Source: Candidatus Magasanikiibacteriota bacterium
GTDB lineage: Bacteria > Patescibacteriota > Patescibacteriia > Magasanikbacterales > UBA922
Assembly (NCBI GenBank): GCA_018651085.1
Contig: JABIEQ010000017.1
Coordinates: forward strand, 1 to 51,588
Length of the DNA: 51,588 nucleotides
Direction of reading: 5' to 3'
The notes beneath the pieces were generated by a model. The model was not told the DNA's origin. It did no database searches and saw only the letters and a list, made by a program, of their open reading frames with translations. The translations under genes and the position numbers were made by a program. Every line of letters begins with the position of its first letter. Positions within the stretch are counted from its first letter, which is position 1. This document shows, one piece after another, positions 6,632 to 51,588 of this stretch.

Positions 6632-6703
6632 ATGATATTTTTTAATATATTGTACCCCTACAATAGCAGTGTGACCTTCATTCGTCAATGTAAATTACTA
6701 AAT

Positions 6704-21782: not shown

Positions 21783-22424
21783 ATGATTAAACACTCTCAC
21801 TCTTTTCTCATTTTTATTCCAGCGATTCTTATTGCCATTTTTGCATTGTTTTTTCGCGTTGTGCAATATGAATCAATTAATAACGTTCCAGAAGAAGAAA
21901 CAGCGCTACCTGATGATTTTCGTATCCCTATTTATCCTGATGATCCTATCATTGGAAAACGTACCGCAAGAAAAACTATTATTGCTTTTGAAGACTTTGG
22001 TTGCGAAGGATGTCGAATACAGTCTGATATTCTTGAACGAATTATTGCAAAACATCCCGATGATGTGAAAGTTATTTGGAAGGGACTCCCCGTCACACAC
22101 TTCCCTTTCCCATCAAACGAAGCGCACCGATATAGTTACTGTGCGAATAAACAAGGGGAATTTGAACCCTTTACCAAACTTGCTTTTTCTCAGTTTGATA
22201 ATTTATCGCCAACAACACTTGATGCTATATCTGAAAAAGTTGAATTAAAGGACAAAAAGCTTCGTGAGTGCCTTGAAAATCCAGGAACAAATGCTCATAT
22301 TGATAGAACAGCACAACTTGCTACTATTCTTAATATACAGGCTGTACCTGCCATGTTTGTTGATTTTACTCAAGTGCAACCCCCTGTCACGGTTAGCGGA
22401 TGGGAAGCACTCTTAGGTTTATAA
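21783..22424 (+). CDS. DsbA-family thiol:disulfide oxidoreductase, membrane anchored
   Basis: This is a 213-aa ORF with an N-terminal TM helix, the CxxC motif FGCEGC in a thioredoxin-fold context, and a C-terminal VPAMFV motif. Confidence 0.75.
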   Translation: MIKHSHSFLIFIPAILIAIFALFFRVVQYESINNVPEEETALPDDFRIPIYPDDPIIGKRTARKTIIAFEDFGCEGCRIQSDILERIIAKHPDDVKVIWKGLPVTHFPFPSNEAHRYSYCANKQGEFEPFTKLAFSQFDNLSPTTLDAISEKVELKDKKLRECLENPGTNAHIDRTAQLATILNIQAVPAMFVDFTQVQPPVTVSGWEALLGL

Positions 22425-24461: not shown

Positions 24462-25754
24462 ATGCTCCGACATTTTTTTTCAATTCGAGGATACTTCCTT
24501 TCATCTATTCTAGCAGGGGTTCTTTTATTTACTTTATTTTTTCCTTTTGTTGTATATGGAGCTAGTACGGATCTCCCAACTGACAAGGCTCCTGTTTTTG
24601 ATCCACAACTAGAAATATCCATCCCTGGACTAGATTTCACAAGTGCTGAAGATGTCCGAGATACCGCACATATAGCAAAAGATGGCTCAACATACATTAC
24701 TATTCCTTTTCTTGGTGAATACATTTCTGCTATTTTTACCTATGGTGTTGCGGTGTCTACTATCCTTGCAATGTTTATGTGCCTTATTGGTGGATTGCAA
24801 TGGATGGTATCTCGAGGGGATGGTCCTGCCATTCAAGCAGCGAAAAGCCGCATGGTAAAAGCGATTATTGGGTTACTTTTAGCCTTGGGATCGTATACTA
24901 TATTATATACAATAAATCCTGAACTTATTAAGTTTAGAAACTTACGAGTGTTGTATGTACGGCAGATTGATTTATCGAAATATATTGTTGCTCTTGTTGG
25001 TGAAGGTGGTACGGTTACCCCTATCACAGACCCTAATGTCCATCATGCTAAACCTGGGGCAAAAAACCAAAAACTTACAGACGAGATGATGATTGACATT
25101 GCTGATAGGATGGGTATTGATAAATGTATTGTATTATCTACCATTAAAAAAGAATCTGGGGGTAATCTCCATCTCATTGGACACGACGAAAATTTTCCTG
25201 TCACTAGGCGTGGAAAAATTTGTCCAACGGTTAGCGCTCGAAAATCTTTTCTTTCTCATGGAAGAACCTTTAAAAATGTAGGGTTTACTCCAATTCCCCT
25301 TGACACATATAACCCTTGTATTCATAACAATTACAAAGTAAGCGGGAAAATTATTAAAAATGATGATAAATTTGACCTTAACAGTCCCCCCGAGTATGGT
25401 TTAGATTGGCGATATTCTCATGGAATTGGGTTTGGTCAAATTACCATTTTTCCTGATCCTAAAAAATCAAGTTGGAATAGCCAAATTAATGGGCCCAATG
25501 GTCCTGAATGGGCCCGTAAAATTATTGATCGATGGTACACTGTGAGTGATCTTTTAAATGCTGATAAACAACTTGAAGCGACTATTCTTTTAATGAATCA
25601 TGTATATAAAGCGGCCAAAGGTGATGTTGAAAACTTTTTTAAACGATATGCCGGTGGAGCAGCAGGGATTCCTCGAGCGATGAAATTTTATTGCTCTTGT
25701 CTAGACACCCATACTGATCTCCCCCGTGAACCAGCGTGTGTTAATTATAAATAA
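24462..25754 (+). CDS. Pilin-like two-helix membrane module fused to a lytic transglycosylase (SLT/GH23-like) domain
   Basis: It has an N-terminal signal/TM segment, then module copy 2 (24621-24959). The C-terminal domain has an SLT-like catalytic Glu-Ser (LSTIKKESGGN) and a YSHGIGFGQIT motif. Confidence 0.6.
   Translation: MLRHFFSIRGYFLSSILAGVLLFTLFFPFVVYGASTDLPTDKAPVFDPQLEISIPGLDFTSAEDVRDTAHIAKDGSTYITIPFLGEYISAIFTYGVAVSTILAMFMCLIGGLQWMVSRGDGPAIQAAKSRMVKAIIGLLLALGSYTILYTINPELIKFRNLRVLYVRQIDLSKYIVALVGEGGTVTPITDPNVHHAKPGAKNQKLTDEMMIDIADRMGIDKCIVLSTIKKESGGNLHLIGHDENFPVTRRGKICPTVSARKSFLSHGRTFKNVGFTPIPLDTYNPCIHNNYKVSGKIIKNDDKFDLNSPPEYGLDWRYSHGIGFGQITIFPDPKKSSWNSQINGPNGPEWARKIIDRWYTVSDLLNADKQLEATILLMNHVYKAAKGDVENFFKRYAGGAAGIPRAMKFYCSCLDTHTDLPREPACVNYK
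24621..24959 (+). repeat. Paralogous two-helix module, copy 2 (type IV secretion pilin-like)
   Basis: The module is IPGLDF...ITIPFLGEYISAIFTYGVAVSTILAMFMCLIGGLQWMVSRGDGPAIQAAKSRMVKAIIGLLLALGSYTILYTINPELIKFRNLRVLYV. It is collinear with copy 1. Confidence 0.7.
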
Positions 25755-27548: not shown

Positions 27549-29030
27549 CTACTTCTCTTCCCAAACATCACTATTTTCAATGACTTTTTTACAAATATCT
27601 ACAAAATTCTTTATTATATTTCCATCTGCTATATCCCCTTGTATATCATCATATATTTTAAGATCTTCAAGTGCTTCGCCTCCTAATGAGGGCAATACTT
27701 TTACTAGATCTATTAAATCATCCCTTAAGACATTTCCCATCCTTGCTATATTGTCTTCTTTTGAAACGACACGAATACTAGGATCAATATCCCTTACCTC
27801 CAACTCTTTCATTCTTCTAAGCAATATTGTCCATAAGCCAAGATTACAACCATTTAATACTTTATCTCGCATATTAAAACCACCAATATCTCTTGGAAGA
27901 ATATGCTTTGCATCTCCTTTCATTTTTGTTGTAATAACCTTTTTTCTCCATGATGCCATATCATCCATTCCAGCAAATGACATAGGTGATCCATCACTAA
28001 TATCTATCATGCCCGCTCCTTCTACCGTTTCAATTATTCTTTGGATTAAATCACCTTTAGACAAAATCGCAGGATTATCAAAACTTTTTTCTAAAGCTAC
28101 TTCATTAATATGTAAATGTATCATTCGTGTTAATTCATATACACTTCTTGCTTTTCCTAATAAATTTCCTTTATCTTTAGATTCTCTAAATCGTACAACT
28201 CTGTCACGAAATGATTCAAGATCAAGATCAGTAGGAAAATCAGGGTTTATATCTGGCCGAGATGATATATTAAGAGCTGTCCTTTTTAGGCAATCTTTTT
28301 GTAATGCGGCCCTTTCTGGATGATGAATATCAATATCTTCAAAATGCTCTAGTATAAAATGGAACCCTGTCGCGCCTTCACTTTCTTTTTCTAAAAAACT
28401 GGCATTAATTCCAATGTCACCTAACATATCATATAACCTTTTTTCCATGTTTACATCCCATTTTTTTGATGCTATTAACTTTTTTCTTAATTGCTTCCAC
28501 TTTTCATATTGTTCCATTTGAAATGCTATGGCATCTTTTCTTTGATCAATCGTATTTTTTTTTATATCAACTGCATACCTTACGGACAGTACATCCTCTA
28601 CAAAAAGGTGGTCAATAACTCCGACAGCTTCCTCACACAATTGCACTATCCCCCGAAATGCTAGATCTATTTTAGATAGTAATCGTTCTGAACCAGAAGT
28701 ACTTTCTTCTTTATCTAGACTCCACTGTTCATATAGTTCTTCCCATTTTTCTTTTATCTCAAGTAAGGCTACGATATCATACCTTTTATGAGGCATCTCA
28801 GCATCTGTAGCTTTCATTTCCTCCACGTTTTTTTGTATATCTTCTTTACTTTCCTTTAACGCAGCAAAAATATCAAAATTATTTTTGGATTCTATTTTTT
28901 CTTTTATAACTGCAATTTCCTCTCTTCTTTTCTTATTTGGAAATGTTACAGCAGTGTCCTGACCTAACTGTTCTTTTTCGGTATCCACCGTGGGGTCAAC
29001 AATACGGAATCTTTCTGTTCGTCTTTTCAT
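27549..29030 (-). CDS. Hypothetical protein (493 aa, soluble, acidic)
   Basis: This is a long ORF with genome-typical codon usage and its own terminator. I recognise no motif or family. The opposite-strand ORF 27328-28323 is low complexity and is rejected. Confidence 0.6.
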   Translation of the reverse strand: MKRRTERFRIVDPTVDTEKEQLGQDTAVTFPNKKRREEIAVIKEKIESKNNFDIFAALKESKEDIQKNVEEMKATDAEMPHKRYDIVALLEIKEKWEELYEQWSLDKEESTSGSERLLSKIDLAFRGIVQLCEEAVGVIDHLFVEDVLSVRYAVDIKKNTIDQRKDAIAFQMEQYEKWKQLRKKLIASKKWDVNMEKRLYDMLGDIGINASFLEKESEGATGFHFILEHFEDIDIHHPERAALQKDCLKRTALNISSRPDINPDFPTDLDLESFRDRVVRFRESKDKGNLLGKARSVYELTRMIHLHINEVALEKSFDNPAILSKGDLIQRIIETVEGAGMIDISDGSPMSFAGMDDMASWRKKVITTKMKGDAKHILPRDIGGFNMRDKVLNGCNLGLWTILLRRMKELEVRDIDPSIRVVSKEDNIARMGNVLRDDLIDLVKVLPSLGGEALEDLKIYDDIQGDIADGNIIKNFVDICKKVIENSDVWEEK

Positions 29031-31369: not shown

Positions 31370-31873
31370 TTAATGAATTTTCCAATTTCTTACCCATGCA
31401 TCAGCAATTGGTTCATCTTCTTTTTCAAGATCTTCTGGAAGAAATTCTCTCAGAGAATGTCTTATATCAACGGGATTAAGATCAAGAAGTGGCACACGAA
31501 GAATTGGTCTAAAGATACTTTTCGTATCAAGAAATAATGTTTTTACTCTTGGTGGTGCATAGATAATATAAAAAACATCAAACTCACTGTAAGTATAAAA
31601 TTTACTTCCAATAACAATCCCCAATTCTGTTACTGCAAACTGTACATCTGGAGCATGTTGGTGTGCCTGAAGAAACAATATAATGGCAAATAAAATAATA
31701 ATCAGTGAAAAAATAAAGTTCCCTGTTATTATTCCATAAATAATTAATGCAAGTCCAGCAAGGATTGACACCGCATACCAGCGATTCCCTCTTGCGTGCT
31801 GTTCATATTCTTTTACTCTCCAAGCATAATGGACATCACCAATGATTGTATCTTCCCTAATAGTTTGTGGCAT
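31370..31873 (-). CDS. Hypothetical membrane protein (167 aa, two TM helices)
   Basis: The ORF has the hydrophobic hairpin WYAVSILAGLALIIYGIITGNFIFSLIIILFAIILFL. I recognise no family. Confidence 0.6.
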   Translation of the reverse strand: MPQTIREDTIIGDVHYAWRVKEYEQHARGNRWYAVSILAGLALIIYGIITGNFIFSLIIILFAIILFLQAHQHAPDVQFAVTELGIVIGSKFYTYSEFDVFYIIYAPPRVKTLFLDTKSIFRPILRVPLLDLNPVDIRHSLREFLPEDLEKEDEPIADAWVRNWKIH

Positions 31874-39595: not shown

Positions 39596-41071
39596 ATGGC
39601 AAAGACACTCACTATTGAAGGCTTAGTCGAGAAAATTTTGGGATATGCTCCTGATTCAGACACAGAGATTGTTCGCCTTGCTTATGAATTTGCTAAGGAT
39701 GCTCATGAAGGACAAACAAGACGATCTGGGGAACCGTATATTACTCATCCCCTTGCAGCAGCTCATATATTAGCTGATATCCGTATTGACCCTGTCATCG
39801 TTACAGCGACGCTTCTTCATGATGTTCCAGAAGACACAGAAGTGACGCTAGAAGACATTGAAAAGAATTTTGGGAGTGATATTGCGTCACTTGTCCGTGG
39901 TATTACTAAACTTGGAAAATTGAAATATCGTGGCGTTGAACGTTATATTGAAAATCTTCGAAAAATGTTTGTTGCAATGGCTGAAGATGCTCGCGTTATG
40001 CTTATTAAATTTGCTGACCGTGTGCATAATCTTACAACCTTGGGATCTCTTCCTCCACAGAAACAGTATCGTATTGCACTTGAGAGTCTTGAAATTTATG
40101 CTCCTATTGCAGGACGACTTGGTATTGCTGAAATGAAGGGACAGCTTGAAGACCTATCATTTCGATATGTGTACCCCAAAGAGTATGCTCGTGTTAAAAA
40201 TATTCGAACTGAGAAACTACAAGGGAAAGAAGGATACATTGATACTGTCAGAACACATGCTAAAGAAGAAATTGCATCTGCTGGCGTTACTATTTGCAGT
40301 ATTGAGGGAAGAGAAAAACGATTATTTAGCTTTTATCAAAAACTCATTCGAAAGGATAATAAAATGGCAAGAATTTATGATCTTGTCGCTATCCGTATTA
40401 TTGTTCCATCAGTTGCTGATTGCTATGCAGTCCTTGGTGTTCTTCATAAAGTGTGGAAACCAGTAAAAGGCCGTATTAAAGACTATATCTCTCAACCAAA
40501 GCCAAATGGATACCAATCACTTCATACCACCGTATTTAGCGAAAATGGTGAGCTTGTAGAATTTCAAATACGAACAGAAGAAATGCATGAGGAAGCTGAA
40601 TTTGGAATTGCCGCACATTGGCACTATGATGAAAAAGGTGGCCGCCTTCCTAAAAAACAAATTCAATGGGCAAAAGAGCTTGCTGAGATCCAAAAAGATA
40701 TATTGAATAACCTTACAGATCTTGAATCCATGAAGGTAGACTTTTTACAAAACCGTATCTTTGTGTTTACTCCCAAAGGAGATGTGATTGATCTACCTGA
40801 TGGTGCTACTCCTGTTGATTTTGCTTACCACATTCATACGGAGATTGGTAATAAATGCGGTTCAGCTATTGTAAACGATAATATTGCGAAACTTGATGCT
40901 GCCTTAAAAAATGGTGACGTTGTTGAAATTATCATGGATAAAGGAAGAAAAGGTCCTAACCCAGACTGGTTATCCTTTGTAAAAACACATACAGCAAAAT
41001 CTCACATTAAACTTAGTGCAAAAAATAAAAAACTTACTGGTTGGCTAAAGTCTGTCCTTCCTAAAAAATAA
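39596..41071 (+). CDS. rel: Short RelA/SpoT homologue: HD hydrolase, (p)ppGpp synthetase and TGS domains only
   Basis: This is a 491-aa ORF with an HD motif (HPLAAAHILA...LLHDVPEDT), synthetase motifs (DLVAIRIIV, GYQSLHTTV, EFQIRTEEMH) and a TGS domain (IFVFTPKGDVIDLPDGATPVDFAYHIH). The ORF ends about 40 aa after TGS. Confidence 0.9.
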   Translation: MAKTLTIEGLVEKILGYAPDSDTEIVRLAYEFAKDAHEGQTRRSGEPYITHPLAAAHILADIRIDPVIVTATLLHDVPEDTEVTLEDIEKNFGSDIASLVRGITKLGKLKYRGVERYIENLRKMFVAMAEDARVMLIKFADRVHNLTTLGSLPPQKQYRIALESLEIYAPIAGRLGIAEMKGQLEDLSFRYVYPKEYARVKNIRTEKLQGKEGYIDTVRTHAKEEIASAGVTICSIEGREKRLFSFYQKLIRKDNKMARIYDLVAIRIIVPSVADCYAVLGVLHKVWKPVKGRIKDYISQPKPNGYQSLHTTVFSENGELVEFQIRTEEMHEEAEFGIAAHWHYDEKGGRLPKKQIQWAKELAEIQKDILNNLTDLESMKVDFLQNRIFVFTPKGDVIDLPDGATPVDFAYHIHTEIGNKCGSAIVNDNIAKLDAALKNGDVVEIIMDKGRKGPNPDWLSFVKTHTAKSHIKLSAKNKKLTGWLKSVLPKK

Positions 41072-41074
41072 TAT

Positions 41075-41106
41075 TAAAAAACGAGGTGTATACACCTCGT
41101 TTTTTA
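41075..41106. terminator. Strong bidirectional terminator between rel and the T4SS-like operon
   Basis: A perfect 20-nt palindrome ACGAGGTGTA/TACACCTCGT (41081-41100) is flanked by AAAAA and TTTTT. Confidence 0.8.
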
Positions 41107-41120
41107 ATATGTTATATTTA

Positions 41121-41672
41121 TTATTGAAAGAAGAAGCCATTTACTAACCAATTATTTCCTCTTTTTTCTAACTCTACTCGAGCGTGCCTTTGCAACACTA
41201 CTCCTAATTCATCTGTCTCTTGTATCCCTACCGTCACGATAGCTTTGGCATTGGTTACTGACTCTATTTTTGTACTAATAACGTTTGTCGTAACTTCTTT
41301 GTATTCAGCACTCTCTTCTAATCGATTTGTGTCAACCCAAATAGCCATGCTATTTGTGACATACACCAATGCATCATCAATATGCTTATTCTTATTATTT
41401 GTTGAAAAACTTCTAAATCGTTCCGTAAAATCTTTTGCTCGTTGTCTAATATATCTTTCTGTTGGATCAACAGGTGTTTGATCTACTTCAATTGGGGCAA
41501 TGATTTCTTGAATAGTTTCTTGTGAAATAAATGGTTGATCTCCGGTTCCTCCATTCTCTTGATCTTCTAGTGTTTTGTCATCAGTACTTTTACCTAACAA
41601 TAAAAATAACGCAATAATAAGTATTATTAGTATAATTATTCCTCCTATAATACCTTTATGTTTTCTTTGCAT
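41121..41672 (-). CDS. Hypothetical bitopic membrane protein, last gene of the T4SS-like operon (VirB8-like architecture, unproven)
   Basis: This is a 183-aa ORF with a short basic N-terminus, one TM helix (IIGGIIILIILIIALFLLLG) and a roughly 140-aa extracytoplasmic alpha+beta domain. It starts 5 nt after the virB4-like stop. Confidence 0.55.
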   Translation of the reverse strand: MQRKHKGIIGGIIILIILIIALFLLLGKSTDDKTLEDQENGGTGDQPFISQETIQEIIAPIEVDQTPVDPTERYIRQRAKDFTERFRSFSTNNKNKHIDDALVYVTNSMAIWVDTNRLEESAEYKEVTTNVISTKIESVTNAKAIVTVGIQETDELGVVLQRHARVELEKRGNNWLVNGFFFQ

Positions 41673-41677
41673 ATATA

Positions 41678-43558
41678 TTATCTATTTCTACCTTTTCCTA
41701 ATACTTCTCGTTGATATTCTTCTCTTGCTTTTTCTATTTCTAATAACTGCTTTGGGTCGGAAGTGATTAATTGATCTTCAGTGTACGAAGCCACAACCTT
41801 TATGGCAGCGTGTTTAAGCCCTGCAAAAAATATCCCTTCCCCTACGGCACTTTCTAACAACAAATATTTCTCACCTTCAGTTAAAAAGAATGTCTTTTGA
41901 ATTAAATCAATTGCAGCTGGAGACTGACGAAGAAGCATTTGTAATGATGAATTGGTTACAATAGCTTTTCCATATGGAGAACGTAAAAAATCATTTACGT
42001 CTTGTGTAATAGTCGTTACTCCAAGATAATACTTTCTTGCTCTTTTTACGAGTGCGTAAATAAACTTAGCACTGTCTTCATGTGTCATGAGCCACCACGC
42101 CTCATCAATAATGAGTAGACGCTTTTTCTTTTCACTACGGACAATATTCCAAATATAGTTAATCACAGAATAAATAGCCATTGGTCGGAGTTCGTCTTCT
42201 AGATCACGTACACTAAAGACAACCAACTGATTATTCATGTTTACATTTGTAGGAGAATTAAATAATCCAGCGAATGTTCCTTCTGTATACTTTCGTAATT
42301 TTAATACCAAATCTCTGGCTCCCTCTAATCCTTCAAGAACATCGAGAAGATCTTGCATAATTGGAGGCTCTACTACAGACAAATCAGAATTTGCCGTAAT
42401 ATCCTTTTTTGCAAATGTTTCTAAAAGTGCTCTATCTAGTACAGAATCTTCTTCAGCACTTACTGAACCAAACATGATCCTTAAAAGCCCTTTTAAGGTG
42501 ATTACAGCACTTCTCACGACATCTTCTGTAGAAATCTGTCTTCCTACAGGACGTGGAAGATCAAAGGGGTTTACCTTACTTTCTGACGCGAGTGAAATAT
42601 TTACATATGTTCCACCAACAGCTTCACATAAATGCTCATATTCTTTTTCAGGATCAATAATGATAATTTCTGTCCCAAACATCAGACTCCGAAGTACTTC
42701 GAGTTTTACCATATACGATTTTCCAGCACCAGAGGTTGCAAATACTACCATGTTGGCATTTTGTAAAGAAAATCTATCAAAAAGAATGAGACTATTGTTG
42801 TGCCTATTAATTCCATACAGAACACCATCATCACTACTTAACTCAGATGACACAAATGGAAAAGATGATGCAATTGGACTTGAATTCATGTTAAAGGCAA
42901 TTGATAGTTCATCAATACCAATTGGTGCAGTTGATGTAAATCCTTGTTCTGCTTGAAAAAAGACTCCTTTTGTATAAATAAGTTTTGATCCAAATATATT
43001 TTCTACATCTTCTGATACTTTCTCTAATTCTTCTTTATCTTTTGCATAGACTGTGGCATAAAATGCAAACTGAAAAAAATGTTCAATTCCTTGGGTTAAA
43101 TCATCTCGCAATTGTTCAATGTCACGAAGCGCTGTTTCTCGTACAGGATCTCTTGGCGCTCCTTTTTCGGCATCAGACGAAAGTTGTGCTTCAAGTGCAC
43201 CTACTTTCTTTTTTAATTGCTTTAATATAATTGCTGACTTTACTGGATAGAAAAACATTGAAATATCAAGAGCAACATTGAGGTTTAAAATTGGGGTACT
43301 CCATCCAACAGAGATGTAACGTGGATATGAAATAACAAAAAATGTACGTAAAAATACGTCACCTAATTGGATGAAGCTTGATTCTACCCGAAACGCGGCA
43401 GGAGCAATGAGGTCTCTTACCGCCACTGTTCCTTCCCTATAGATGCGTTCTTCTTCTAGGGTAACGAGTTCTTCTACTTGTTCTTGTTCTTTTTTATTCG
43501 CGCCCTTTCCTTGAACAATTCCTCGTTTTTGTTGTCTATGTATTGGTTTAAATGCCAT
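41678..43558 (-). CDS. virB4: VirB4/TrbE-family type IV secretion ATPase
   Basis: This is a 626-aa ORF with Walker A (VVFATSGAGKSYMVK), Walker B (RLLIIDEAWWLM) and an N-terminal region typical of Gram-positive VirB4 homologues (LIAPAAFRVESSFIQLGDVFLRTFFVISYPRYISVGW). Confidence 0.85.
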   Translation of the reverse strand: MAFKPIHRQQKRGIVQGKGANKKEQEQVEELVTLEEERIYREGTVAVRDLIAPAAFRVESSFIQLGDVFLRTFFVISYPRYISVGWSTPILNLNVALDISMFFYPVKSAIILKQLKKKVGALEAQLSSDAEKGAPRDPVRETALRDIEQLRDDLTQGIEHFFQFAFYATVYAKDKEELEKVSEDVENIFGSKLIYTKGVFFQAEQGFTSTAPIGIDELSIAFNMNSSPIASSFPFVSSELSSDDGVLYGINRHNNSLILFDRFSLQNANMVVFATSGAGKSYMVKLEVLRSLMFGTEIIIIDPEKEYEHLCEAVGGTYVNISLASESKVNPFDLPRPVGRQISTEDVVRSAVITLKGLLRIMFGSVSAEEDSVLDRALLETFAKKDITANSDLSVVEPPIMQDLLDVLEGLEGARDLVLKLRKYTEGTFAGLFNSPTNVNMNNQLVVFSVRDLEDELRPMAIYSVINYIWNIVRSEKKKRLLIIDEAWWLMTHEDSAKFIYALVKRARKYYLGVTTITQDVNDFLRSPYGKAIVTNSSLQMLLRQSPAAIDLIQKTFFLTEGEKYLLLESAVGEGIFFAGLKHAAIKVVASYTEDQLITSDPKQLLEIEKAREEYQREVLGKGRNR

Positions 43559-43563
43559 AGCGA

Positions 43564-44253
43564 TCAGTAGATATCTTCAACTTGAATCTTTTCTACATTT
43601 TGTAGTTGTTGTGTTAAGGCAACATCTGGGTTATATGTCCCGTAATAAAGTTCAATCAATGCTTGGGTGTCTAACTCTGCTACTTGTAACCCTAGACTTT
43701 CTAACCCTCCTGCAACGTGCCGTGTCCGTACCTCAAGATCATGTCTTCTTTGCTCAAATCTTTTCTCTTTTAATCGAATGGTAAATGATGGCTTTAATAC
43801 TTCTTTAAATCTGGAAAAGAATCCTTTCTTTTTATTTGATAATGGGTCATATGGCACTACCACATAAAACTTTTTTGTCATGATTTGCCCGATATCTACA
43901 AGTTCTTGTACAAAAGCTCTATAATCTGCAATCTGTACACGAAGTAATTCATTTGCTTGGTTTCTTTCTAGCTGTATGAGTTGCTCAAGATATGGTTTTA
44001 TTTGTAATTGACGAGATTGCACTACAATCTGTAATGGAAAATCAATAGAATTCAAAAACCCAACATATGACGATATGATTGCGTTTTGTTCGTCTTCTGA
44101 TTTTAAGGCAAAATTAATACTTGATACTAATAGTACTCCTCGTACGGTTCCATCCTTTAGTACCACCATACCATCACGTATTTCTGCTATTGGAAGGTGC
44201 GCTTGTGTACTTGGCCTTCCTTTTTTTGCCTTTTTTGCTTTTTTACTTTTCAT
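43564..44253 (-). CDS. Hypothetical T4SS-operon protein (229 aa) with a VirB4 N-terminal-domain-like motif
   Basis: It has a Lys-rich N-terminus followed by LPIAEIRDGMVVLKDGTVRGVLLVSSINFALKSEDEQNAIISSYVGFLNSIDFPLQIVVQSR. As I recall the pattern, this resembles the start of VirB4/TrbE proteins. It has no P-loop. Confidence 0.5.
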   Translation of the reverse strand: MKSKKAKKAKKGRPSTQAHLPIAEIRDGMVVLKDGTVRGVLLVSSINFALKSEDEQNAIISSYVGFLNSIDFPLQIVVQSRQLQIKPYLEQLIQLERNQANELLRVQIADYRAFVQELVDIGQIMTKKFYVVVPYDPLSNKKKGFFSRFKEVLKPSFTIRLKEKRFEQRRHDLEVRTRHVAGGLESLGLQVAELDTQALIELYYGTYNPDVALTQQLQNVEKIQVEDIY

Positions 44254-44280: not shown

Positions 44281-44715
44281 TTATCTCAAATCATTGTCGG
44301 GTCGGTAATACCCACCCGTGTTGACTACTAATGCGAGATCTTTAATTCTTGCTCTACGAACTTTTTTTCTTTCAACCACCACAACGTCTTCTTTTATTCC
44401 TTTTTTTCGTAAATAATCTAATTCTTTTTTAGAATATTCTTTTCTCCAAATTCGTAACCCTGGTTTTGTTTTTGTTTGAATAATATTTAATATAAAATAA
44501 TGAAATGCTTGCCCTTTTACTTTAGCAAAAGCAAACAATAAGGCAATTCCTCCGATAAAAAGGGCTAGTGTTAGAAAAAGAGCTGTATCAGCGAATCTAT
44601 ACACAATAAAAATAATAATCCCAGCGATAAGCATGATCAAAAACTGTCGCACTGTAATAGGTCCAAGGATTTTATCTTCTACTTCAATAAATTGTGGCAC
44701 GACAAACTGCTGCAT
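44281..44715 (-). CDS. PrgI-family (VirB3-like) small membrane protein
   Basis: This is a 144-aa ORF with the N-terminal motif VPQFIEVEDKILGPITVRQF followed by two TM helices, as in the PrgI family. It lies immediately upstream of the VirB4-related genes. Confidence 0.6.
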   Translation of the reverse strand: MQQFVVPQFIEVEDKILGPITVRQFLIMLIAGIIIFIVYRFADTALFLTLALFIGGIALLFAFAKVKGQAFHYFILNIIQTKTKPGLRIWRKEYSKKELDYLRKKGIKEDVVVVERKKVRRARIKDLALVVNTGGYYRPDNDLR

Positions 44716-44716
44716 A

Positions 44717-45892
44717 CTATAACCTAATCGATTTATTGATATCTACAATAACATGGTGTTCTTCGTTACTTAATCCCTCTTGATTATTTAGTACTTCTTT
44801 TAATGTTATTCCTTCGTGTAATGCCTGTGAAATACTTTCTTGATACGCACTATAAAGTGGGCTTCTTTCCCATGCAAGCACTCCTTTTACTAAAAGAAGG
44901 AATGATTCTTTTTTTAGAGTATCAAATTTTGATAGTATCATTTTTTTGCTTGCTTGTGGTGTTGTTCCTAATCTTCTGAAATCTTTTAGTGTAATGTGCC
45001 CTAATTCATCAATTGGCCCAATACTTGCCTTTTCTCTTGGTTGCGGTTTGGGTGGCCTAATGTCATGCATCATTGGTTTAATATCAATCGCTGGAATCAC
45101 AAAAGCATGATCTTTTCTGTTTGGGATAAGTTTTTGAACTTGTGGAGTGGATTTTTTGGGAGTTGGAGTTGCCTTTTTAGGTGATTTTTTTTTAAAGGCT
45201 TCCTCTGGTACCTGAAGTTCACTATGGATGGCACTAATGACCTTTACCGCGTCCTCTTTTGTAAGGCCGACTCCCCCATGGGTGATATCTTCTGTAAGAT
45301 ACTCTTTAATTTGCTCGTCACTTCTTATCTCTTTTATCCTTGACTCGATCAGAGAACCTAATCGACTCACAACACTTTTATCGACTGAAATAGATATGGT
45401 CTTAAGCACTTTATTTACCTGATCTTGCCTTCCTGACACCGCTCCCTTTCCTTTTTCTATGTCTACCTCTTTATGAAAAGTATCATCTAATAATGATTTA
45501 TGATCATCTTCGCCCCAATGAGTATCTTTTGCGGCTGCTTGTTCTTCAAACACCTCAGTGTTTGGTGTGGTTGTACTTATTGCAGTTGAGGCACTTTTTG
45601 TAAGTGCTACTGGTTGAAGTATCACTAATGCTTTCTTTTCAATAGGCTCTTTTGTCTTTTGTGGCGGCACTGAGAATGAAGCAACTGGAGCTCCGGCTTG
45701 TTCTTCATGATGGGTATGTATTGCCCTGTTTTGAGGTAAGAGGTCTTCTTCTTTTTCTTCTTTTTTCACTGCTTTATATGACGCAAATTCAGCCATGGTC
45801 ATACGCACCATGGATCCATCTTTTTTCTTTACAGGAATTGTTCGTTCATGTGCTTTTACCATACAAATTAGTTCAAGAGGTCTTGATTCCAT
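44717..45892 (-). CDS. Hypothetical protein (391 aa; an alternative ATG at 45862 removes the overlap)
   Basis: This is a soluble, partly low-complexity (Pro/Lys/Thr-rich) ORF inside the T4SS-like operon. I recognise no family. Confidence 0.5.
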   Translation of the reverse strand: MESRPLELICMVKAHERTIPVKKKDGSMVRMTMAEFASYKAVKKEEKEEDLLPQNRAIHTHHEEQAGAPVASFSVPPQKTKEPIEKKALVILQPVALTKSASTAISTTTPNTEVFEEQAAAKDTHWGEDDHKSLLDDTFHKEVDIEKGKGAVSGRQDQVNKVLKTISISVDKSVVSRLGSLIESRIKEIRSDEQIKEYLTEDITHGGVGLTKEDAVKVISAIHSELQVPEEAFKKKSPKKATPTPKKSTPQVQKLIPNRKDHAFVIPAIDIKPMMHDIRPPKPQPREKASIGPIDELGHITLKDFRRLGTTPQASKKMILSKFDTLKKESFLLLVKGVLAWERSPLYSAYQESISQALHEGITLKEVLNNQEGLSNEEHHVIVDINKSIRL

Positions 45893-46920
45893 ACAAATCC
45901 ACCTTTTTCTTCGTCAAAATAATACAAATCCCGAATTGCATCGTTGTTATATTGTTCTGCAAGCTCATCAAGATGAGAAAGCACTTCTTCTAACATATTA
46001 ATGCCGGGCTGTTTTGTCTTGAAAAATCGTTCTTCTATACTTGCTCGAATTTCTTTCATTGATGGGGCTTGTTGTGGTGCTTTTACTTCTTCTATGACAT
46101 TAATTGGTATTTTTTTAGTAACCGCTTGAGCTTCTTTTTGTTCTTCTTTTGTATTATTTGGAATATCTTGTTCTTCAGATTCCTCAAACAAAGAAAGCTT
46201 TGGATCTCCAAATATCACATCTTCATCAATGTGCGTTAGTAAAAATGGACCTTGTAATGTTTCAAGGTATTCATCTATAACAACCTCAATATCTCCATCT
46301 TCATAAAAAAACTTCAATAATTCAAGAAAGGCAACAACATTTTGTGTCTGTTTTTTTTCTTCTACAAATACGAGTTCTTGATCCTTGTGATATAGCCACC
46401 CTTCTATATGTGCATAGATATTTGCAAGCTCAATATTTGTTTTATTTTTTTTCGTCGCATACTGTTTTGCAATTTCAGAAATTGTTGGACTGTTTTCTAT
46501 TGTTGGATTTATCCGTACTGATCGTTTGAGAAATTCACTTTTGAGTTTATTAAAGTATGTATGAAGATCAGGGAGACTAATGCTATGCCTGTGAAGATAA
46601 CTCAGAAGATATTCTTCAACAGGGATGTCTAGCATGAATGCGGTTGGTAATTGATAGGTAAAAATATCAATAAATTCTTCCTTATCGTGCCAAAGTACTG
46701 TTTTCCATGAGATAGATACATACCATTTCCAATAAGAATCAAAATAGGTGGCAATTACTTTTGGATCAAATGATTTTGATACAAAAAAATGATGAAGAGC
46801 CACGAATATGCCTTCGATACTTCCCTCTGGATCATGAAAAAGAATAGATAGTTTTCTACTATACTCTTCTTTTTGATCTTCGGTGAGATCCTTAGGTTGT
46901 GTGAACATGGTGATGTCCAT
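45868..46920 (-). CDS. Hypothetical protein (350 aa, acidic, soluble)
   Basis: The ORF lies 8 nt downstream of the giant VirB6-like gene on the same strand. I recognise no family. Confidence 0.55.
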   Translation of the reverse strand: MDITMFTQPKDLTEDQKEEYSRKLSILFHDPEGSIEGIFVALHHFFVSKSFDPKVIATYFDSYWKWYVSISWKTVLWHDKEEFIDIFTYQLPTAFMLDIPVEEYLLSYLHRHSISLPDLHTYFNKLKSEFLKRSVRINPTIENSPTISEIAKQYATKKNKTNIELANIYAHIEGWLYHKDQELVFVEEKKQTQNVVAFLELLKFFYEDGDIEVVIDEYLETLQGPFLLTHIDEDVIFGDPKLSLFEESEEQDIPNNTKEEQKEAQAVTKKIPINVIEEVKAPQQAPSMKEIRASIEERFFKTKQPGINMLEEVLSHLDELAEQYNNDAIRDLYYFDEEKGGFVWNQDLLN

Positions 46921-46928
46921 ACGTCTTC

Positions 46929-49900
46929 TTATTTAAATTTGTTCTTTAACTCTGCCCAAATTTGACTTCTTGGGGATGATTTACCACCAGGGCTAGTAGG
47001 TGGATCATAAAAGTTTAGTGTACTTTCATCTACCCCTAAGGTATTCATGATTTCTAATATAGCACTTACAATATTATCTTTTTGTGCAGGTGATGTTGAT
47101 CTATTAAAATCACGTTCCCAAATACTTATTGCCTCTCCCCAAAAATCTTTTATTTCTGTTTGTTCATCTGTTAATACAAATTTATTTTTACTTTTGTCAT
47201 ATGTTGACTTGTCGAATGTTCCTCCACTTAAAAAGTTAAATACTGAACCATCTTCTTTTGTTACCGCTTTTTTTCCACGAAGTTGTGTTATTCCAAGTGC
47301 AGCAGCTCTTACTTGATCATTATGAAATCCCGTTGATAACTTTGAACCGTCTTTTTTTGTCTTTGTTTTTACAAATGTACGACCATCTCCACTACTTGAA
47401 AAGGTATGATTAACTAATGCTTCTGAAGTTTGAGAGTTGTGACGACTTATCATTCCGTCTGTGTCTCCACCTGTCCCTAACCGGTTTTCTCCACCAAGTC
47501 CAGCTTGGGCAATATTGGCAAACCCTACTTTTCTATCTCCAAATTCATCAATCTGATCCCCAAATTGTGCATAAAACTGCCACTGCCCGTCTGATGCAGC
47601 TTTTGACGATGATGTAAGGAGATTTCTAAACAATAATCCAGATTTATCTTCCTTAAGATCTTTTCGTAATTTTTCTTGAATTTTTCCTGCATCTTCTGCA
47701 CTATCAAAGCTCTTATAGTCCTCTCCTGAAGCTAATCCAAGTAATACTTTATGAAGTTCTTTTGGATCATTTAACTCGTGTTCTTTAAAGGTGTCATTAA
47801 AACTGGCAAGATATTCTCCAAGGAAATTTCCATAGCCTCTTGCAATGGCACTTGCCATAGAACGCATTTGATTTTGTCTTGCGTTTTTAAGGTCAGTTTC
47901 TTCTTGTTGAGTAATTGAGCCATCACTTTCCTTCACTTTTAAATTTTTAATATCACTATAATGAGATTTTATATCACGAAATAACTGCGGAAAATCTTTT
48001 AATGCATATTCTTCAAGTTCTTCTTTATATTGTGAATTTTCCCATTCCCGGAGTTTTCTTTCACCTTTATTTTCTTCTATCCGTAGAATATCTCCAACTT
48101 GCCTTGTTAACCGTTCTGTTTCTGATTTTTGTTTCCCTGTTTTTTGTCCTCCACGACCAGCAGCTTCAAATGCTTCAAAGTAATTCAACCCCTTTATAGC
48201 TTCCAGTCTTACTTTTACCCTGTCTGCTTTCGTCAGACCTTCTGTTGCTTTTTTTCGTGCTTTTTTTAGCCCTCTTTTTTGTGCTCTTTTTGCATTTATC
48301 TCCCTGTTGGCAACTCTTTCTGAATTATTTTCAACATACTCAATAGCTTGTGCTCGTGCATCAGCTTCACTTATATCACTTGCACTTGTAAGTGATGCTA
48401 CCCGTTCATCAATAAACTCACGGGTAAACCCATCAAAGGTCTTTTCATATTTTCCACCTGCTTTGAAAGCTGCAACTTTTTTATCTATATCATCACTAAT
48501 TTCTTTATTATCTTCTGATTTTGTTGTATTTACTCTCGCCACATGTTCTATAGCAGCCACTCTCGTATTTTTTTTCACCTCTACTATAATTTTTTGTCTT
48601 GCGTTCTCTTTCTCAATAATTTTTTCTTTATCAGTATACTCGTCAAACTCACCATCTTCTTCTAAGATTTGCACACGATCATTAAGATACTGCCCAAGCT
48701 CACTGAGGTCTGTTATATCTCCCCCACCATCATGTATAGCAATAGACCCTGCAAAAGAGATTTCATTCAATTCAATCATTTGCCTTGTATCTTTAATCAG
48801 AGATTCTCTTGCTAATTCACCTGCTTGTCCTTTTACATGTTCTATCGCTATTTTTTCTTTCTCTGCATCTTTTAATTTACTTCCATCGGCACCATTAACT
48901 AAAACCTCACCTTTATTAATTTGATCTATATGACCCAGCACGGCATTTTCCACGTCCTGGTCAAGAAATGCTCCCTTGTCAAGCTCTGCTATGATCTTTT
49001 TCTCTCTCTTTTTTATGTCCCCTTTTCCTATTAAGTTTTTCGCTAATCCTTTATCACTTGTTATATCTTCTTCTGAAATATCTAAAAGTGTATCATCATC
49101 TTTTAGTATTTTTTCAGCACGTTCTTTTAATAGCTCAGTCATTCCTTCCTTATACCTTTTACCAAATTCTCCTCTTTGACTTAAGAGCTTTTGTAATTTC
49201 TTTTGATAAAATACTTTATCTTCATAACCACTTGTTTTTTCTTCAGCAAGTCTTGCATCTTCTTTTACTGTTTCAGCCTCGCTTAATTCTTTAAAGTGTT
49301 TTGCTTCTCCACTTCTAAATCCAGGACTTTCTGCTACTTGACTTTCTACTTTCTTTCGTAGTGCTTTTTCTTGTTTTGCAGTAAGTCTGGTACCATCAGC
49401 TTCTAGTTTATTTTTCTCTTTTGAAACTCTATCATCTACCCTATCACTGTAATCTGACAAAATTCGTAGTTTTAATTCTGCTTCACTCTTTTTCTCTGCC
49501 CCATCTTTTACTTCTTTTGCAGCTTTTCTTCTAATAGCTTCTCTTGCAATACCTTCATCACTATTAAAAGCTTTAGCTGATCCCTCGTGCTTATACCTCT
49601 TTGATTGATCGTCAATACTTGTTTGAATTTCTTCAATTTCTCCCTTTCGTCTATCTCCTGATTGGAAAAGCCTTCCGGCATAAGGAGTATTCCTTAACCC
49701 TCTATATGCTTGAAGGGCACCTTTATGTACTTGGTGCTTAAGGGCATTATACCCACTAAGTTTTTTAGCAACTGGTAAAATTGCTTTTCCAACTACAGCT
49801 TTAGTTCCTTTTTTCCCAAGTTCATAGGCTCCCCTTCCAACCACGTACCCAGATCCAATGGCAGCAACGTATTTTCCAAACTTGGTAACGTTACTAAGAA

Positions 49901-51050
49901 GACTTCCACCTTTTACTCCGAGTTTTTGTACTCGCTCTATTCCCATTAACAAAAAGGCTATAGCAATAGCAAGATTAGCCATGTTTTCCCATGTAGTTCC
50001 CGCTGACAGACTTGCTGTGGGGCTTTGTATTACAGCCCCATTATTTAGGCCTGTTACCACTGTTCCTGCTGCGGCTTGTTCTGCACTTGTGGGATCAATT
50101 TGTAATTCTTGCGCAATGGTCCCTGATCCAAACGAGGCAAACGCCAACCACAAGAAAAAGACCATCATTGGGGCTAAAATAACGTGATTGATAAACTCTT
50201 TCCAATATTCTTGAGCGTATGATTTTGTTTGCGGTAGAATCTGTAAAATGTAGGCAAACGGTGAAATAATAATAAGTGTCCAAAGGACTACCATCCGAAT
50301 AAGTAATAATAGAAAGTATACACCTATGGTAATAAGGACTAAGGCTGAAAACATCATGATCATGAAAGATGCCACAAATAGATCAAGCCGTAACCCTTGC
50401 CCTGCGAGTTGTTCTGGCGGAATGGTGTTTGTGATCTTATACAAATCATCTAACCCAAACATGTTGATGATGTTTCCACCAGCAGTTGAGGCAATAGCAT
50501 TTAAAAATGTAATTGTTACCACGTGCGCTGCATCAATAATGATTTGCGCAATGAGTTTACTAAAGTTGATAAGAATGGCTGCAATAACAAGCTTCCCAAG
50601 TGCCTTTTTCCATTCGTATTGTTCAAGTCCTAAGATTGTTCCAAAAGCAATAACGAGTAGTGCTACTACGAAAAACATGTTTGCGAGGTCTCGTATCATG
50701 AACCACCCAATAAGCACTGGTGGCGCATTTGAAAAATCGTTGTATTGTGCGAGCCTAATAAGAAATTCAAGCGCAAACGTTGTGAGCGTAATACATAACT
50801 CCCCAATCGCCAACATGATTTCCGACAATATTCGTATAAACCAATTTGCCGGAGAATTAAACGCTCCAAGATCTACATCTAAACTCCCCCCAGCATCATC
50901 AACGGCAAGGGCAGCATCCCCAAATAAAAATAAACCAATCACAATGCATCCAACAAAAAGCGCACTCAGTAGTAGTGAGCGCTTGTTTGAATTTATCGCA
51001 AACAGCCAGGACGTCAATTGCCTCTTGATTGCTTGGTGCATGGAAACCAA
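46929..51050 (-). CDS. Giant membrane protein: VirB6/TrbL-like polytopic N-domain plus a roughly 950-aa charged extension
   Basis: This is a 1373-aa ORF with a TTG start at 51050 (alternative ATG at 51041). It has a signal/TM segment and at least 6 hydrophobic helices in the first 400 aa or so (for example FFVVALLVIAFGTILGL, LVIAAILINFSKLIAQIIIDAA, MIMMFSALVLITIGVYFLLLLIRMVVLWTLIIISPF). A K/E-rich coiled-coil-like region and a C-terminal globular part follow. Confidence 0.65.
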   Translation of the reverse strand: MVSMHQAIKRQLTSWLFAINSNKRSLLLSALFVGCIVIGLFLFGDAALAVDDAGGSLDVDLGAFNSPANWFIRILSEIMLAIGELCITLTTFALEFLIRLAQYNDFSNAPPVLIGWFMIRDLANMFFVVALLVIAFGTILGLEQYEWKKALGKLVIAAILINFSKLIAQIIIDAAHVVTITFLNAIASTAGGNIINMFGLDDLYKITNTIPPEQLAGQGLRLDLFVASFMIMMFSALVLITIGVYFLLLLIRMVVLWTLIIISPFAYILQILPQTKSYAQEYWKEFINHVILAPMMVFFLWLAFASFGSGTIAQELQIDPTSAEQAAAGTVVTGLNNGAVIQSPTASLSAGTTWENMANLAIAIAFLLMGIERVQKLGVKGGSLLSNVTKFGKYVAAIGSGYVVGRGAYELGKKGTKAVVGKAILPVAKKLSGYNALKHQVHKGALQAYRGLRNTPYAGRLFQSGDRRKGEIEEIQTSIDDQSKRYKHEGSAKAFNSDEGIAREAIRRKAAKEVKDGAEKKSEAELKLRILSDYSDRVDDRVSKEKNKLEADGTRLTAKQEKALRKKVESQVAESPGFRSGEAKHFKELSEAETVKEDARLAEEKTSGYEDKVFYQKKLQKLLSQRGEFGKRYKEGMTELLKERAEKILKDDDTLLDISEEDITSDKGLAKNLIGKGDIKKREKKIIAELDKGAFLDQDVENAVLGHIDQINKGEVLVNGADGSKLKDAEKEKIAIEHVKGQAGELARESLIKDTRQMIELNEISFAGSIAIHDGGGDITDLSELGQYLNDRVQILEEDGEFDEYTDKEKIIEKENARQKIIVEVKKNTRVAAIEHVARVNTTKSEDNKEISDDIDKKVAAFKAGGKYEKTFDGFTREFIDERVASLTSASDISEADARAQAIEYVENNSERVANREINAKRAQKRGLKKARKKATEGLTKADRVKVRLEAIKGLNYFEAFEAAGRGGQKTGKQKSETERLTRQVGDILRIEENKGERKLREWENSQYKEELEEYALKDFPQLFRDIKSHYSDIKNLKVKESDGSITQQEETDLKNARQNQMRSMASAIARGYGNFLGEYLASFNDTFKEHELNDPKELHKVLLGLASGEDYKSFDSAEDAGKIQEKLRKDLKEDKSGLLFRNLLTSSSKAASDGQWQFYAQFGDQIDEFGDRKVGFANIAQAGLGGENRLGTGGDTDGMISRHNSQTSEALVNHTFSSSGDGRTFVKTKTKKDGSKLSTGFHNDQVRAAALGITQLRGKKAVTKEDGSVFNFLSGGTFDKSTYDKSKNKFVLTDEQTEIKDFWGEAISIWERDFNRSTSPAQKDNIVSAILEIMNTLGVDESTLNFYDPPTSPGGKSSPRSQIWAELKNKFK

Positions 51051-51315: not shown

Positions 51316-51588
51316 ATGATAAAACAGACACTTCTTACATTTCTTTTGGTGGTATTTACTCTTACCCCCTCTATGACAGCTCTGGCACAGAGCTCCTCTT
51401 TGGCTATCCCTTCAAGCACAGCGCCTCTTGAAATTTTAGAAGAAGAGCCTTCTTTTGCACATTTAACCTATCCTCTTCTCATGCAAAGAGTTCTTGAAGG
51501 AAGTACTCCTCTTGATCCTTCTCTATCTTCCAGTGAACTTGGTGCAGATTTTGTTTCTTTTATTGATCAAGAAGAAGAACGACTTCAG
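51316..51588 (+). CDS. Hypothetical secreted protein, N-terminal fragment (runs off the window)
   Basis: The ATG at 51316 opens a frame that stays open to the window end (91 codons). It has a signal-peptide-like N-terminus, MIKQTLLTFLLVVFTLTPSMTALAQS. It is absent from the ORF track because no stop lies in the window. Confidence 0.4.
   Translation, partial: MIKQTLLTFLLVVFTLTPSMTALAQSSSLAIPSSTAPLEILEEEPSFAHLTYPLLMQRVLEGSTPLDPSLSSSELGADFVSFIDQEEERLQ

Follow-up and report, generated by a model that had tools for sequence, protein, structure and literature searches.

The window analysed here, 51,588 nucleotides of contig JABIEQ010000017.1 from a Candidatus Magasanikiibacteriota bacterium, carries on its minus strand a gene for a VirB6-like protein of 1370 residues. 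A polytopic membrane domain is followed in this protein by a very long charged tail, which ends in a domain of its own. The protein is best explained, with a probability of about 0.55, as the VirB6-type translocon subunit of a chromosomal, conjugation-derived type IV secretion system (T4SS) resembling the mating-pair formation (MPF) FATA type of monoderm bacteria, the tail of which would serve for docking in the cytoplasm. Residues are numbered in the 1370-residue form, which is three less than in an earlier interpretation of the same DNA (hereafter the sequence-only reading). The coordinates of all features are given in Table 1.

Assignment of the membrane domain to VirB6

The N-terminal part had been described as polytopic, and this was borne out: a signal-like segment is followed by hydrophobic helices up to about residue 369. 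Hydropathy analysis, together with the helices of a model calculated with AlphaFold2 (AF2), revealed seven to nine hydrophobic segments between residues 23 and 369, five being taken as enough for a polytopic protein. In the signal-like segment (residues 1-46), hydropathy defined an n-region with four lysines or arginines within 22 residues, and A46 is conserved in at least 90% of the family. The segment looks like a signal peptide or, alternatively, may be a signal anchor with its N-terminus inside. The N-domain is the most conserved part of the protein, with 35-55% identity across the family. Invariant residues of its core (residues 64-369) include G112, W113, R117, D118, N121, N159-F160-S161, D170, R249, W254 and P261, and many of the invariant polar residues of the N-domain sit within hydrophobic helices.

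The Pfam family TrbL (PF04610) gave a sub-threshold match on residues 145-331 with an E-value of 5.6e-5. It was the sole Pfam family to recur: at E<=0.01, matches were obtained in 12 of 38 relatives (best 3e-6), and many homologues carry precomputed PF19590/PF04610 matches. An AF2 model of the N-domain obtained with 60 homologues reached predicted local distance difference test (pLDDT) values of 85-96 at residues 70-190, 220-300 and 350-390. Among 350,542 PDB chains compared with this model using Foldseek, the five best matches were all TrwI, the VirB6 protein of R388 (7o3v_J/F/G, 8rtd_L and 8rt9_F; probability 0.97-1.0, E 0.013-0.044). The genomic context points in the same direction. The gene shares an operon with virB4 and virB3-like (PrgI) genes, and this association is kept in 87 loci. 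It heads a seven-gene operon on the same strand with intergenic gaps of -25 to +27 nt, and the order VirB6-like, p350, p391, PrgI, TrsD, VirB4, p183 is essentially invariant in the 87 loci, mostly of Candidatus Magasanikbacteria, wherever the sequence suffices.

The alternative that the N-domain is an unrelated polytopic membrane protein, merely encoded beside T4SS genes, draws on three results which weigh against a VirB6 homologue. The Pfam TrbL score of 23.4 bits lies under the curated gathering score of 25.9, the Foldseek E-values are modest with low TM-scores on the target (0.33-0.46), and alignment of the N-domain profile by hhalign with single sequences of TrwI, PrgH and TcpH gave no match (probability <2%), which is a weak test because the targets were single sequences. 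On the other side stand the recurrence of TrbL alone among Pfam families and the agreement of all five top structural matches. Moreover, the gene occupies the place of virB6 in a minimal monoderm T4SS operon that is complete in all other respects and is kept in about 80 species, and published profile searches call VirB6 homologues beside virB4 in Patescibacteria (PMC12102498). An unrelated protein is very improbable, and the product is almost certainly a VirB6-type subunit as judged from its sequence and its predicted fold. This assignment is drawn from the Pfam profile, the fold and the genomic context in combination, and agrees with the sequence-only reading, in which a subunit of the VirB6/TrbL type bearing a very large extension at its C-terminus was proposed.

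Composition and divergence of the tail

Over residues 370-1370 (1001 residues), 35% of the tail is charged, with 120 lysines, 59 arginines, 99 glutamates and 73 aspartates, and cysteine is absent. Within residues 471-700 the charged fraction rises up to 45%, in agreement with the charged extension noticed previously. The tail begins with a juxtamembrane segment (residues 370-470), in which 20 lysines and arginines compare with four aspartates and glutamates. It continues with a linker (residues 471-920) that is 36-45% charged, has a net charge of about zero and contains a single proline in 450 residues. The last 200 residues or so have a lower charge and more glycine, serine and threonine. A less charged end with Gly, Ser, Thr and aromatic residues had been noted; this applies to residues ~1150-1340, and the conserved fold, which also has charged helices, already begins near residue 921.

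The long heptad-like stretches mentioned in the sequence-only reading were not recovered. For residues 481-920, the best scores for an a/d register and for i/i+4 Glu-Lys pairing remained at or below the 95th percentile of composition-preserving shuffles in a crude scan of our own making. A coiled-coil or single-alpha-helix stalk, considered as a candidate for this region, gained no support from the same scores. No tandem or direct repeats of the kind present in Anaplasma VirB6-4 were found in the linker.

Alignment by BLAST to 119 homologues separated three parts of the protein. Residues 1-450 aligned in all homologues, residues 500-900 to the closest relative only, and residues 930-1340 in about 29. 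The closest relative (P0002) is 70% identical overall. The identity amounts to 98% in the transmembrane (TM) domain (98-100% over residues 100-400), 90% over residues 401-480, 58% over 481-700, 22-42% over 650-950 (22-36% over 650-850), 69% in the C-domain and 37% in the last 30 residues. A conserved N-domain with a fast-evolving tail, as had been anticipated, is thus observed. The identity cliff within this pair suggests either very rapid divergence or cassette exchange by recombination, and gives the protein a mosaic look. Cluster members at >=90% identity are near-identical to one another and therefore uninformative on selection within populations. A PDB profile search with full-length homologues returned low-complexity eukaryotic matches only, which were reached via the charged linker and were uninformative.

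The C-terminal domain and the tail classes

The C-domain (residues 921-1340) was modelled by AF2 from 26 sequences with a pLDDT of 88 and a predicted TM-score (pTM) of 0.82. In the model, long helices are bundled together and precede a small alpha/beta part. Foldseek gave no credible match in the PDB (best E 0.63, TM-score <0.2) nor in BFVD (best E 0.08, TM-score ~0.1), so that a function cannot be transferred to the domain. An exhaustive profile search of 1.84 billion representative proteins produced 51 matches only, all of them C-termini of proteins of 900-1700 residues, or fragments. The domain is thus confined to the end of proteins of this VirB6-like family. Short matches that could be taken for stand-alone C-domain proteins (P0122, P0124, P0133 and others) look like fragments at contig ends and were not counted. 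The profile search replaced a word-indexed search with a C-terminal fragment of 465 residues, which had returned no match, parent included; charged Lys/Glu-rich words had probably swamped its candidate list.

The homologues of the long protein measure 860-1927 residues, and the C-domain starts between residue ~500 and residue ~1235 among family members, which means that the linker varies about ten-fold in length. The C-termini of 120 family members fell into the clusters A (48 members), B (38, including the protein of the window), C (22) and D (4). Classes B and C are remotely homologous to each other (hhalign probability 98%), and no relation of classes A and D to class B was detected by hhalign. 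One conserved channel domain thus bears at least two unrelated kinds of tail.

In four loci, the end of a class-A tail is encoded as a separate open reading frame (ORF): L038 7367-9328, L053 13533-15380, L080 8500-10419 and L022 4256-6529. These ORFs correspond to the terminal ~615-757 residues and directly follow a shortened VirB6-like gene. No signal peptide was found in them; those of L038, L053 and L080 start with methionine and have no hydrophobic N-terminus. The split may be due to gene fission, or to in-frame stops in L038 and L080.

These separate modules bear on the alternative that the tail or its C-domain is freed by proteolysis and is then secreted, translocated as cargo or used as a free cytoplasmic factor, comparable to TraG* of F or to VirB6 paralogs that are processed in Rickettsiales. 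In some relatives the terminal module is a polypeptide of its own, so that a covalent link is dispensable. Proteases would also find an easy target in a long unstructured linker, and the extended VirB6 paralogs of Anaplasma have been discussed as processed or exposed (PMC7648143). Release of the tail is nevertheless unlikely: the Pfam scans revealed no cleavage motif, secretion signal or effector-like domain, and the split tails are of a class other than that of the window protein.

Co-variation of the C-domain with p350

The second gene of the operon encodes p350, for which a mirror-tree analysis was done. Pairwise distance matrices were compared across 32 class B/C loci with complete operons. 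The distances of the C-domain correlated with those of p350 with r 0.68, and the partial correlation was 0.64 when VirB4 was controlled for and 0.61 when the N-domain was controlled for (permutation p 0.0005). With the other operon proteins, the partial r of the C-domain was 0.19-0.29. The correlation with p350 was reciprocal and was found within class B (0.64) as well as within class C (0.60). p391 and p183, which evolve equally fast (~30% mean identity), showed no comparable correlation with the C-domain.

Additional observations concern the second slot of the operon. In nine loci which have class-A tails only and fail the p350 profile, slot 2 is occupied by a different family of mutually related proteins of 420-520 residues. 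In the closest relative, p350 has 77% identity to that of the window, nearer to the value of the C-domain than to that of the TM domain. A p350 profile search of the large database found three proteins only. The co-variation makes p350 a candidate partner of the C-domain, which is only suggestive. It has to be held against such a partnership that a mirror-tree correlation can stem from a shared evolutionary rate without physical contact.

Orientation of the tail

In order to place the tail inside or outside the cell, lysine and arginine (K/R) were averaged per loop over the family, and explicit topology models were then compared by their K/R bias according to the positive-inside rule. The N-terminus contains 5.4-5.8 K/R on family average and the next loop is acidic, which fits either a start with the N-terminus inside or a cleaved signal peptide. 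The loop ahead of the last helix (residues 306-350) has no K/R in the protein of the window, and the 40 residues after the last helix have 6.0 on family average. Models with the tail inside obtained a bias of +10.9 and +7.8, and those with the tail outside -0.6, -3.7 and +5.2. In Agrobacterium VirB6, the N-terminus is periplasmic and the C-terminus cytoplasmic, which would be the homologous arrangement.

Taken together, the positive-inside analysis, the signal-less split versions of class A and the co-evolution of the C-domain with p350 favour a cytoplasmic tail, none of these lines being decisive. The lack of TM and signal segments in p350 and p391 agrees with this placement. On these sequence features, the tail is probably located in the cytoplasm. 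The sequence-only reading was to be abandoned in case of a cytoplasmic extension with no conserved fold. Of these two elements, the cytoplasmic location is probable and the lack of a fold does not apply, as the AF2 model of the C-domain shows.

Several findings weigh against this placement. The last hydrophobic segment comprises only ~14-16 strongly apolar residues, and the model in which it is interfacial and not membrane-spanning (M5) is the one that puts the tail outside with a bias of +5.2. The AF2 model displays unusually long hydrophobic helices (residues 142-187 and 215-258), which make the number of passes ambiguous. The loop 138-150 is rich in K/R, yet every model sets it outside. The hint from split genes comes from class A, and no homology of this class to class B, that of the window protein, was detected. 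Finally, a divergent tail beside a 98%-identical TM domain would also be expected of a surface-exposed part in contact with a host.

This last point leads to the alternative of an extracellular tail. In this view, the five tails of a VirB6 pentamer would form a stalk across the wall that carries the C-domain at its tip for contact with the host bacterium, and would so replace the VirB5/VirB2 stalk-pilus or the adhesins of Gram-positive systems. The steep drop in identity from membrane domain to tail is typical of surface parts that meet a partner cell, and the presence of at least two unrelated kinds of tail on one conserved N-domain, the shortness of the last hydrophobic segment and the bias of the model omitting it also agree with an external location. 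VirB6 of R388, the match of the N-domain, is the base on which the periplasmic stalk stands (PDB 7o3v), and the C-terminal domain of TraG of the F plasmid is periplasmic. Furthermore, no adhesin is known for the T4SSs of Patescibacteria (PMC12102498).

An extracellular tail is nonetheless doubtful. The conserved basic stretch of 100 residues after the last helix would be hard to export, and the positive-inside rule is best satisfied with the tail inside. The ten-fold variation in linker length, unexpected in a stalk spanning the wall, fits better with a tether than with a stalk of fixed length. The crude scan gave no regular coiled-coil signal, the best co-varying partner of the C-domain has no signal peptide, and neither do the separate class-A modules. 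Weak matches to VirB2-like pilins elsewhere in the window indicate that a pilus may not be missing. The surface stalk or adhesin, or the substitute for a pilus, suggested in the sequence-only reading is thus not favoured, considering the basic segment 370-470, the K/R bias, the signal-less split modules and the co-variation with p350.

Proposed role of the tail

For a VirB6-type subunit with a cytoplasmic tail, the following scheme is proposed. After the signal-like segment, the polytopic core would insert in such a way that its last helix (residues 351-369) exits into the cytoplasm, and the tail would consequently be a cytoplasmic, flexible and mostly helical tether. This tether would keep the C-domain close to the VirB4/TrsD ATPase. 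The C-domain would bind p350, the soluble product of the neighbouring gene, and perhaps p391 as well. The resulting platform would be a built-in docking or recruitment site for a T4SS that has neither coupling protein nor relaxase in its gene cluster, and would supply the function that is provided elsewhere by coupling proteins.

The most specific form of this scheme, in which the C-domain and p350 make up a new cytoplasmic module for cargo recruitment on the VirB6 channel and replace the VirD4 coupling protein, is tentative and rather improbable as it stands. No catalytic or binding motif was recognised in the C-domain, which weighs against the scheme as a whole. If its most specific form were true, the interchangeable tail classes and the matching proteins of slot 2 would define what each lineage exports.

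The T4SS of Patescibacteria is the only one known to be essential for the growth of its owner (PMC10633639, PMC12857230). Its cargo and the selection of that cargo in a system lacking a coupling protein, as well as the role of extended VirB6 architectures, are questions on which the VirB6 family described here gives a handle, namely a conserved channel domain with swappable tails, a lineage-restricted domain at the end of one tail class that folds confidently in prediction, and p350 as a candidate partner. As a cytoplasmic recruitment arm, the tail would point to the substrates; as an external structure, it would point to a device for host contact.

Comparison with known systems

In Patescibacteria, T4SSs with VirB4, TrsD, PrgI and VirB6 are widespread and a relaxase is mostly absent (Quinonero-Coronel et al. 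2025, PMC12102498), and the system is essential for epibiotic growth in a cultivated Saccharibacterium (Wang et al. 2023, PMC10633639). The window corresponds well to this description, with a monoderm-type VirB4, TrsD, PrgI/VirB3 and VirB6 encoded on the chromosome and neither relaxase nor coupling protein in the cluster. The survey (PMC12102498) covers the class ABY1, to which the Magasanikbacteria are assigned in its supplement within the Candidate Phyla Radiation (CPR). The parts of these two papers available to us describe neither the size and domain structure of VirB6 nor the seven-gene order with p350, p391 and p183, the tail classes and the orphan C-domain. As far as the literature covered goes, the seven-gene operon found throughout Magasanikbacteria, the modular tails, the orphan C-domain with a predicted fold and its co-variation with slot 2 have not been described.

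The canonical VirB6/TrwI/TrbL proteins (PF04610; R388 TrwI in 7o3v, 8rtd and 8rt9) share with the CPR protein the polytopic helical core, as the best structural match, and the operon partners VirB3 and VirB4. TrwI differs in its length of 342 residues without a tail; the similarity is marginal, and the CPR protein has an additional signal-like segment at the N-terminus. Extended VirB6 proteins, defined by a core with a large hydrophilic domain (Alvarez-Martinez and Christie, cited in PMC12857230), are a recognised category, the role of whose architecture is unexplained (PMC12857230). With its hydrophilic C-terminal region of 1000 residues, the protein of the window belongs to this category. 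The extended VirB6 proteins of Anaplasma and other Rickettsiales (PMC7648143, PMC3556328) likewise combine a VirB6 core with a very large, hydrophilic and strain-variable C-terminal region in host-dependent bacteria. Their extensions have tandem repeats and occur in several paralogs of diderm bacteria, whereas the window has one gene, from a monoderm, and no repeats. The extension of the window protein, in contrast to those of Rickettsiales, has at its end a separate conserved domain with no relatives elsewhere.

PrgH of pCF10 (266 residues), TcpH of pCW3 (832 residues) and proteins of the ConG/Orf15 type also belong to monoderm T4SSs and are encoded just upstream of VirB3-like and VirB4 genes, the order in pCF10 being prgH-prgI-prgJ. 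The large C-terminal region of TcpH is reported to be cytoplasmic and to interact with other transfer proteins. PrgH and TcpH have no detectable sequence similarity to the protein of the window, and their systems transfer DNA and are equipped with both a relaxase and a coupling protein. F-like TraG resembles the protein in its two-part build: the N-terminal half is polytopic and VirB6-like, and the C-terminal half is large and hydrophilic and has a role of its own, which in TraG is mating-pair stabilisation and entry exclusion. The two, compared by description, differ in the periplasmic location of the TraG domain and the predicted cytoplasmic location of the tail studied here.

The gene and its operon

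The minus strand does contain the ORF 46929..51050 given in the sequence-only reading, with 1373 codons counted from a TTG at 51050 in the ORF list. An in-frame ATG is located at 51041, three codons 3' of the TTG, so that the TTG start would add three residues. The 1370-residue form is probably the actual product, because an identical protein in the public databases (P0001) begins at this ATG. The NCBI call for the contig (P0145) predicts 1337 residues with a start 33 codons inside the ORF. It loses window positions 50943-51041, and with them the basic n-region and half of the signal-like hydrophobic stretch; other sources give the 1370-residue form. On the plus strand, antisense ORFs of 89, 205, 109 and 251 residues run across the gene. 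Between 48 and 50 kb, the coding strand has an extreme purine skew (GC skew -0.35, AT skew -0.31), with which the antisense ORFs coincide, and the GC content of the window is ~37%. As previously noted, these ORFs are present, and they are consistent with by-products of coding rich in AAR and GAR codons.

Table 1. Features of the VirB6-like protein and of its operon in the window
Feature	Position	Strand	Description
Extended VirB6-like gene	46929..51041	-	1370 aa from ATG at 51041; stop codon 46929-46931
Signal-like segment, residues 1-46	50904..51041	-	Basic n-region, hydrophobic stretch of 19 aa, A-L-A|V site
Polytopic VirB6/TrbL-like core, residues 64-369	49935..50852	-	Defined by Pfam TrbL, AF2, Foldseek and conservation
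Juxtamembrane segment, residues 370-470	49632..49934	-	Basic, Gly-rich, conserved in the family
Polyampholyte linker, residues 471-920	48282..49631	-	Hypervariable, ~450 aa
C-terminal domain, residues 921-1340	47022..48281	-	Helical bundle and small alpha/beta part
C-terminal end, residues 1341-1370	46932..47021	-	Pro/Ser-rich, poorly conserved, short terminal helix
p350	45868..46920	-	Soluble, signal-less, no known family; operon slot 2
p391	44717..45892	-	Soluble, Pro-rich linkers, no known family; conserved slot 3
PrgI/VirB3-like membrane protein	44281..44715	-	Pfam PF12666, E 2.1e-9
TrsD/TraC-like protein	43564..44253	-	Related to the N-terminal part of VirB4; NCBIfam TrsD NF041427, 1.2e-8; PF26593
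VirB4-like ATPase, CD1110 family	41678..43558	-	Monoderm MPF-FATA type; NCBIfam NF045971
p183	41121..41672	-	183 aa, N-terminally membrane-anchored; last operon gene
Bidirectional terminator hairpin	41071..41110	.	Perfect 18-bp stem, T-runs on both strands

The VirB4-like ATPase matched NF045971 with 7.5e-100 and 335 bits, above the cut-off of 325. Across the family, TM and signal segments are lacking in p350 and p391, and an N-terminal anchor is present in 98% of the p183 homologues. No family was found for p350, p391 and p183 in the Pfam, NCBIfam and PDB profile searches. The position of p183 is analogous to that of a VirB8/PrgL-like subunit, of which an N-terminal TM anchor and an NTF2-like domain would be expected; p183, which has such an anchor and gave no match in the Pfam and PDB profiles, is a candidate for this role by position. 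The terminator is shared by the T4SS operon and a convergent relA/spoT-like gene. No relaxase or VirD4-type coupling protein was found with Pfam among the window ORFs of at least 120 residues (51.6 kb). The rest of the window encodes housekeeping proteins such as PheRS, a ClpB-like protein, RecG, topoisomerase I, Der, Pth, a Mur ligase and others.

A scan with one genome per species identified 494 genomes with a relative of the long protein. The labelled ones belong to Magasanikbacteria/Magasanikiibacteriota, and the named homologues come from Candidatus Magasanikbacteria. Many third-party annotation (TPA) metagenome-assembled genomes with the Patescibacterial operon are titled 'uncultured Gammaproteobacteria bacterium', which looks like a labelling artefact from the pipeline used for deposition.

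Other genes of the window

Two adjacent genes on the plus strand (22429-24450 and 24462-25754) encode proteins of 673 and 430 residues with weak matches to T4SS_pilin (PF18895). The matches are below threshold (E 5e-4 and 9e-4) and are located 17-20 kb from the operon. The proteins could be the VirB2-like pilin component which has been reported for the T4SSs of Patescibacteria. The 673-residue protein also has a C39-like peptidase domain, and a DsbA-like thioredoxin gene lies just upstream of it (21783-22424). The ORFs 3854-6688 (-), 20551-21777 (+), 27549-29030 (-) and 31370-31873 (-), of 944, 408, 493 and 167 residues, had no Pfam match at E<=0.001, and a 382-residue ORF (19278-20426) had low-complexity-type matches only (TFIIF_alpha, Presenilin).

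A divergent gene begins 275 bp upstream of the VirB6-like gene (51318-51588, plus strand) and continues in a longer contig (L001 5080-9726). About 90 of its codons, including a clear signal peptide, are within the window, and the complete protein in the longer contig has 1548 residues. It displays a weak match to a transglutaminase core and an EndoU_bacteria nuclease domain of the polymorphic-toxin kind. Beyond this gene follow small ORFs of 143 and 153 residues and then a giant protein of more than 2874 residues. The same arrangement with the EndoU gene also adjoins the operon of the closest relative.

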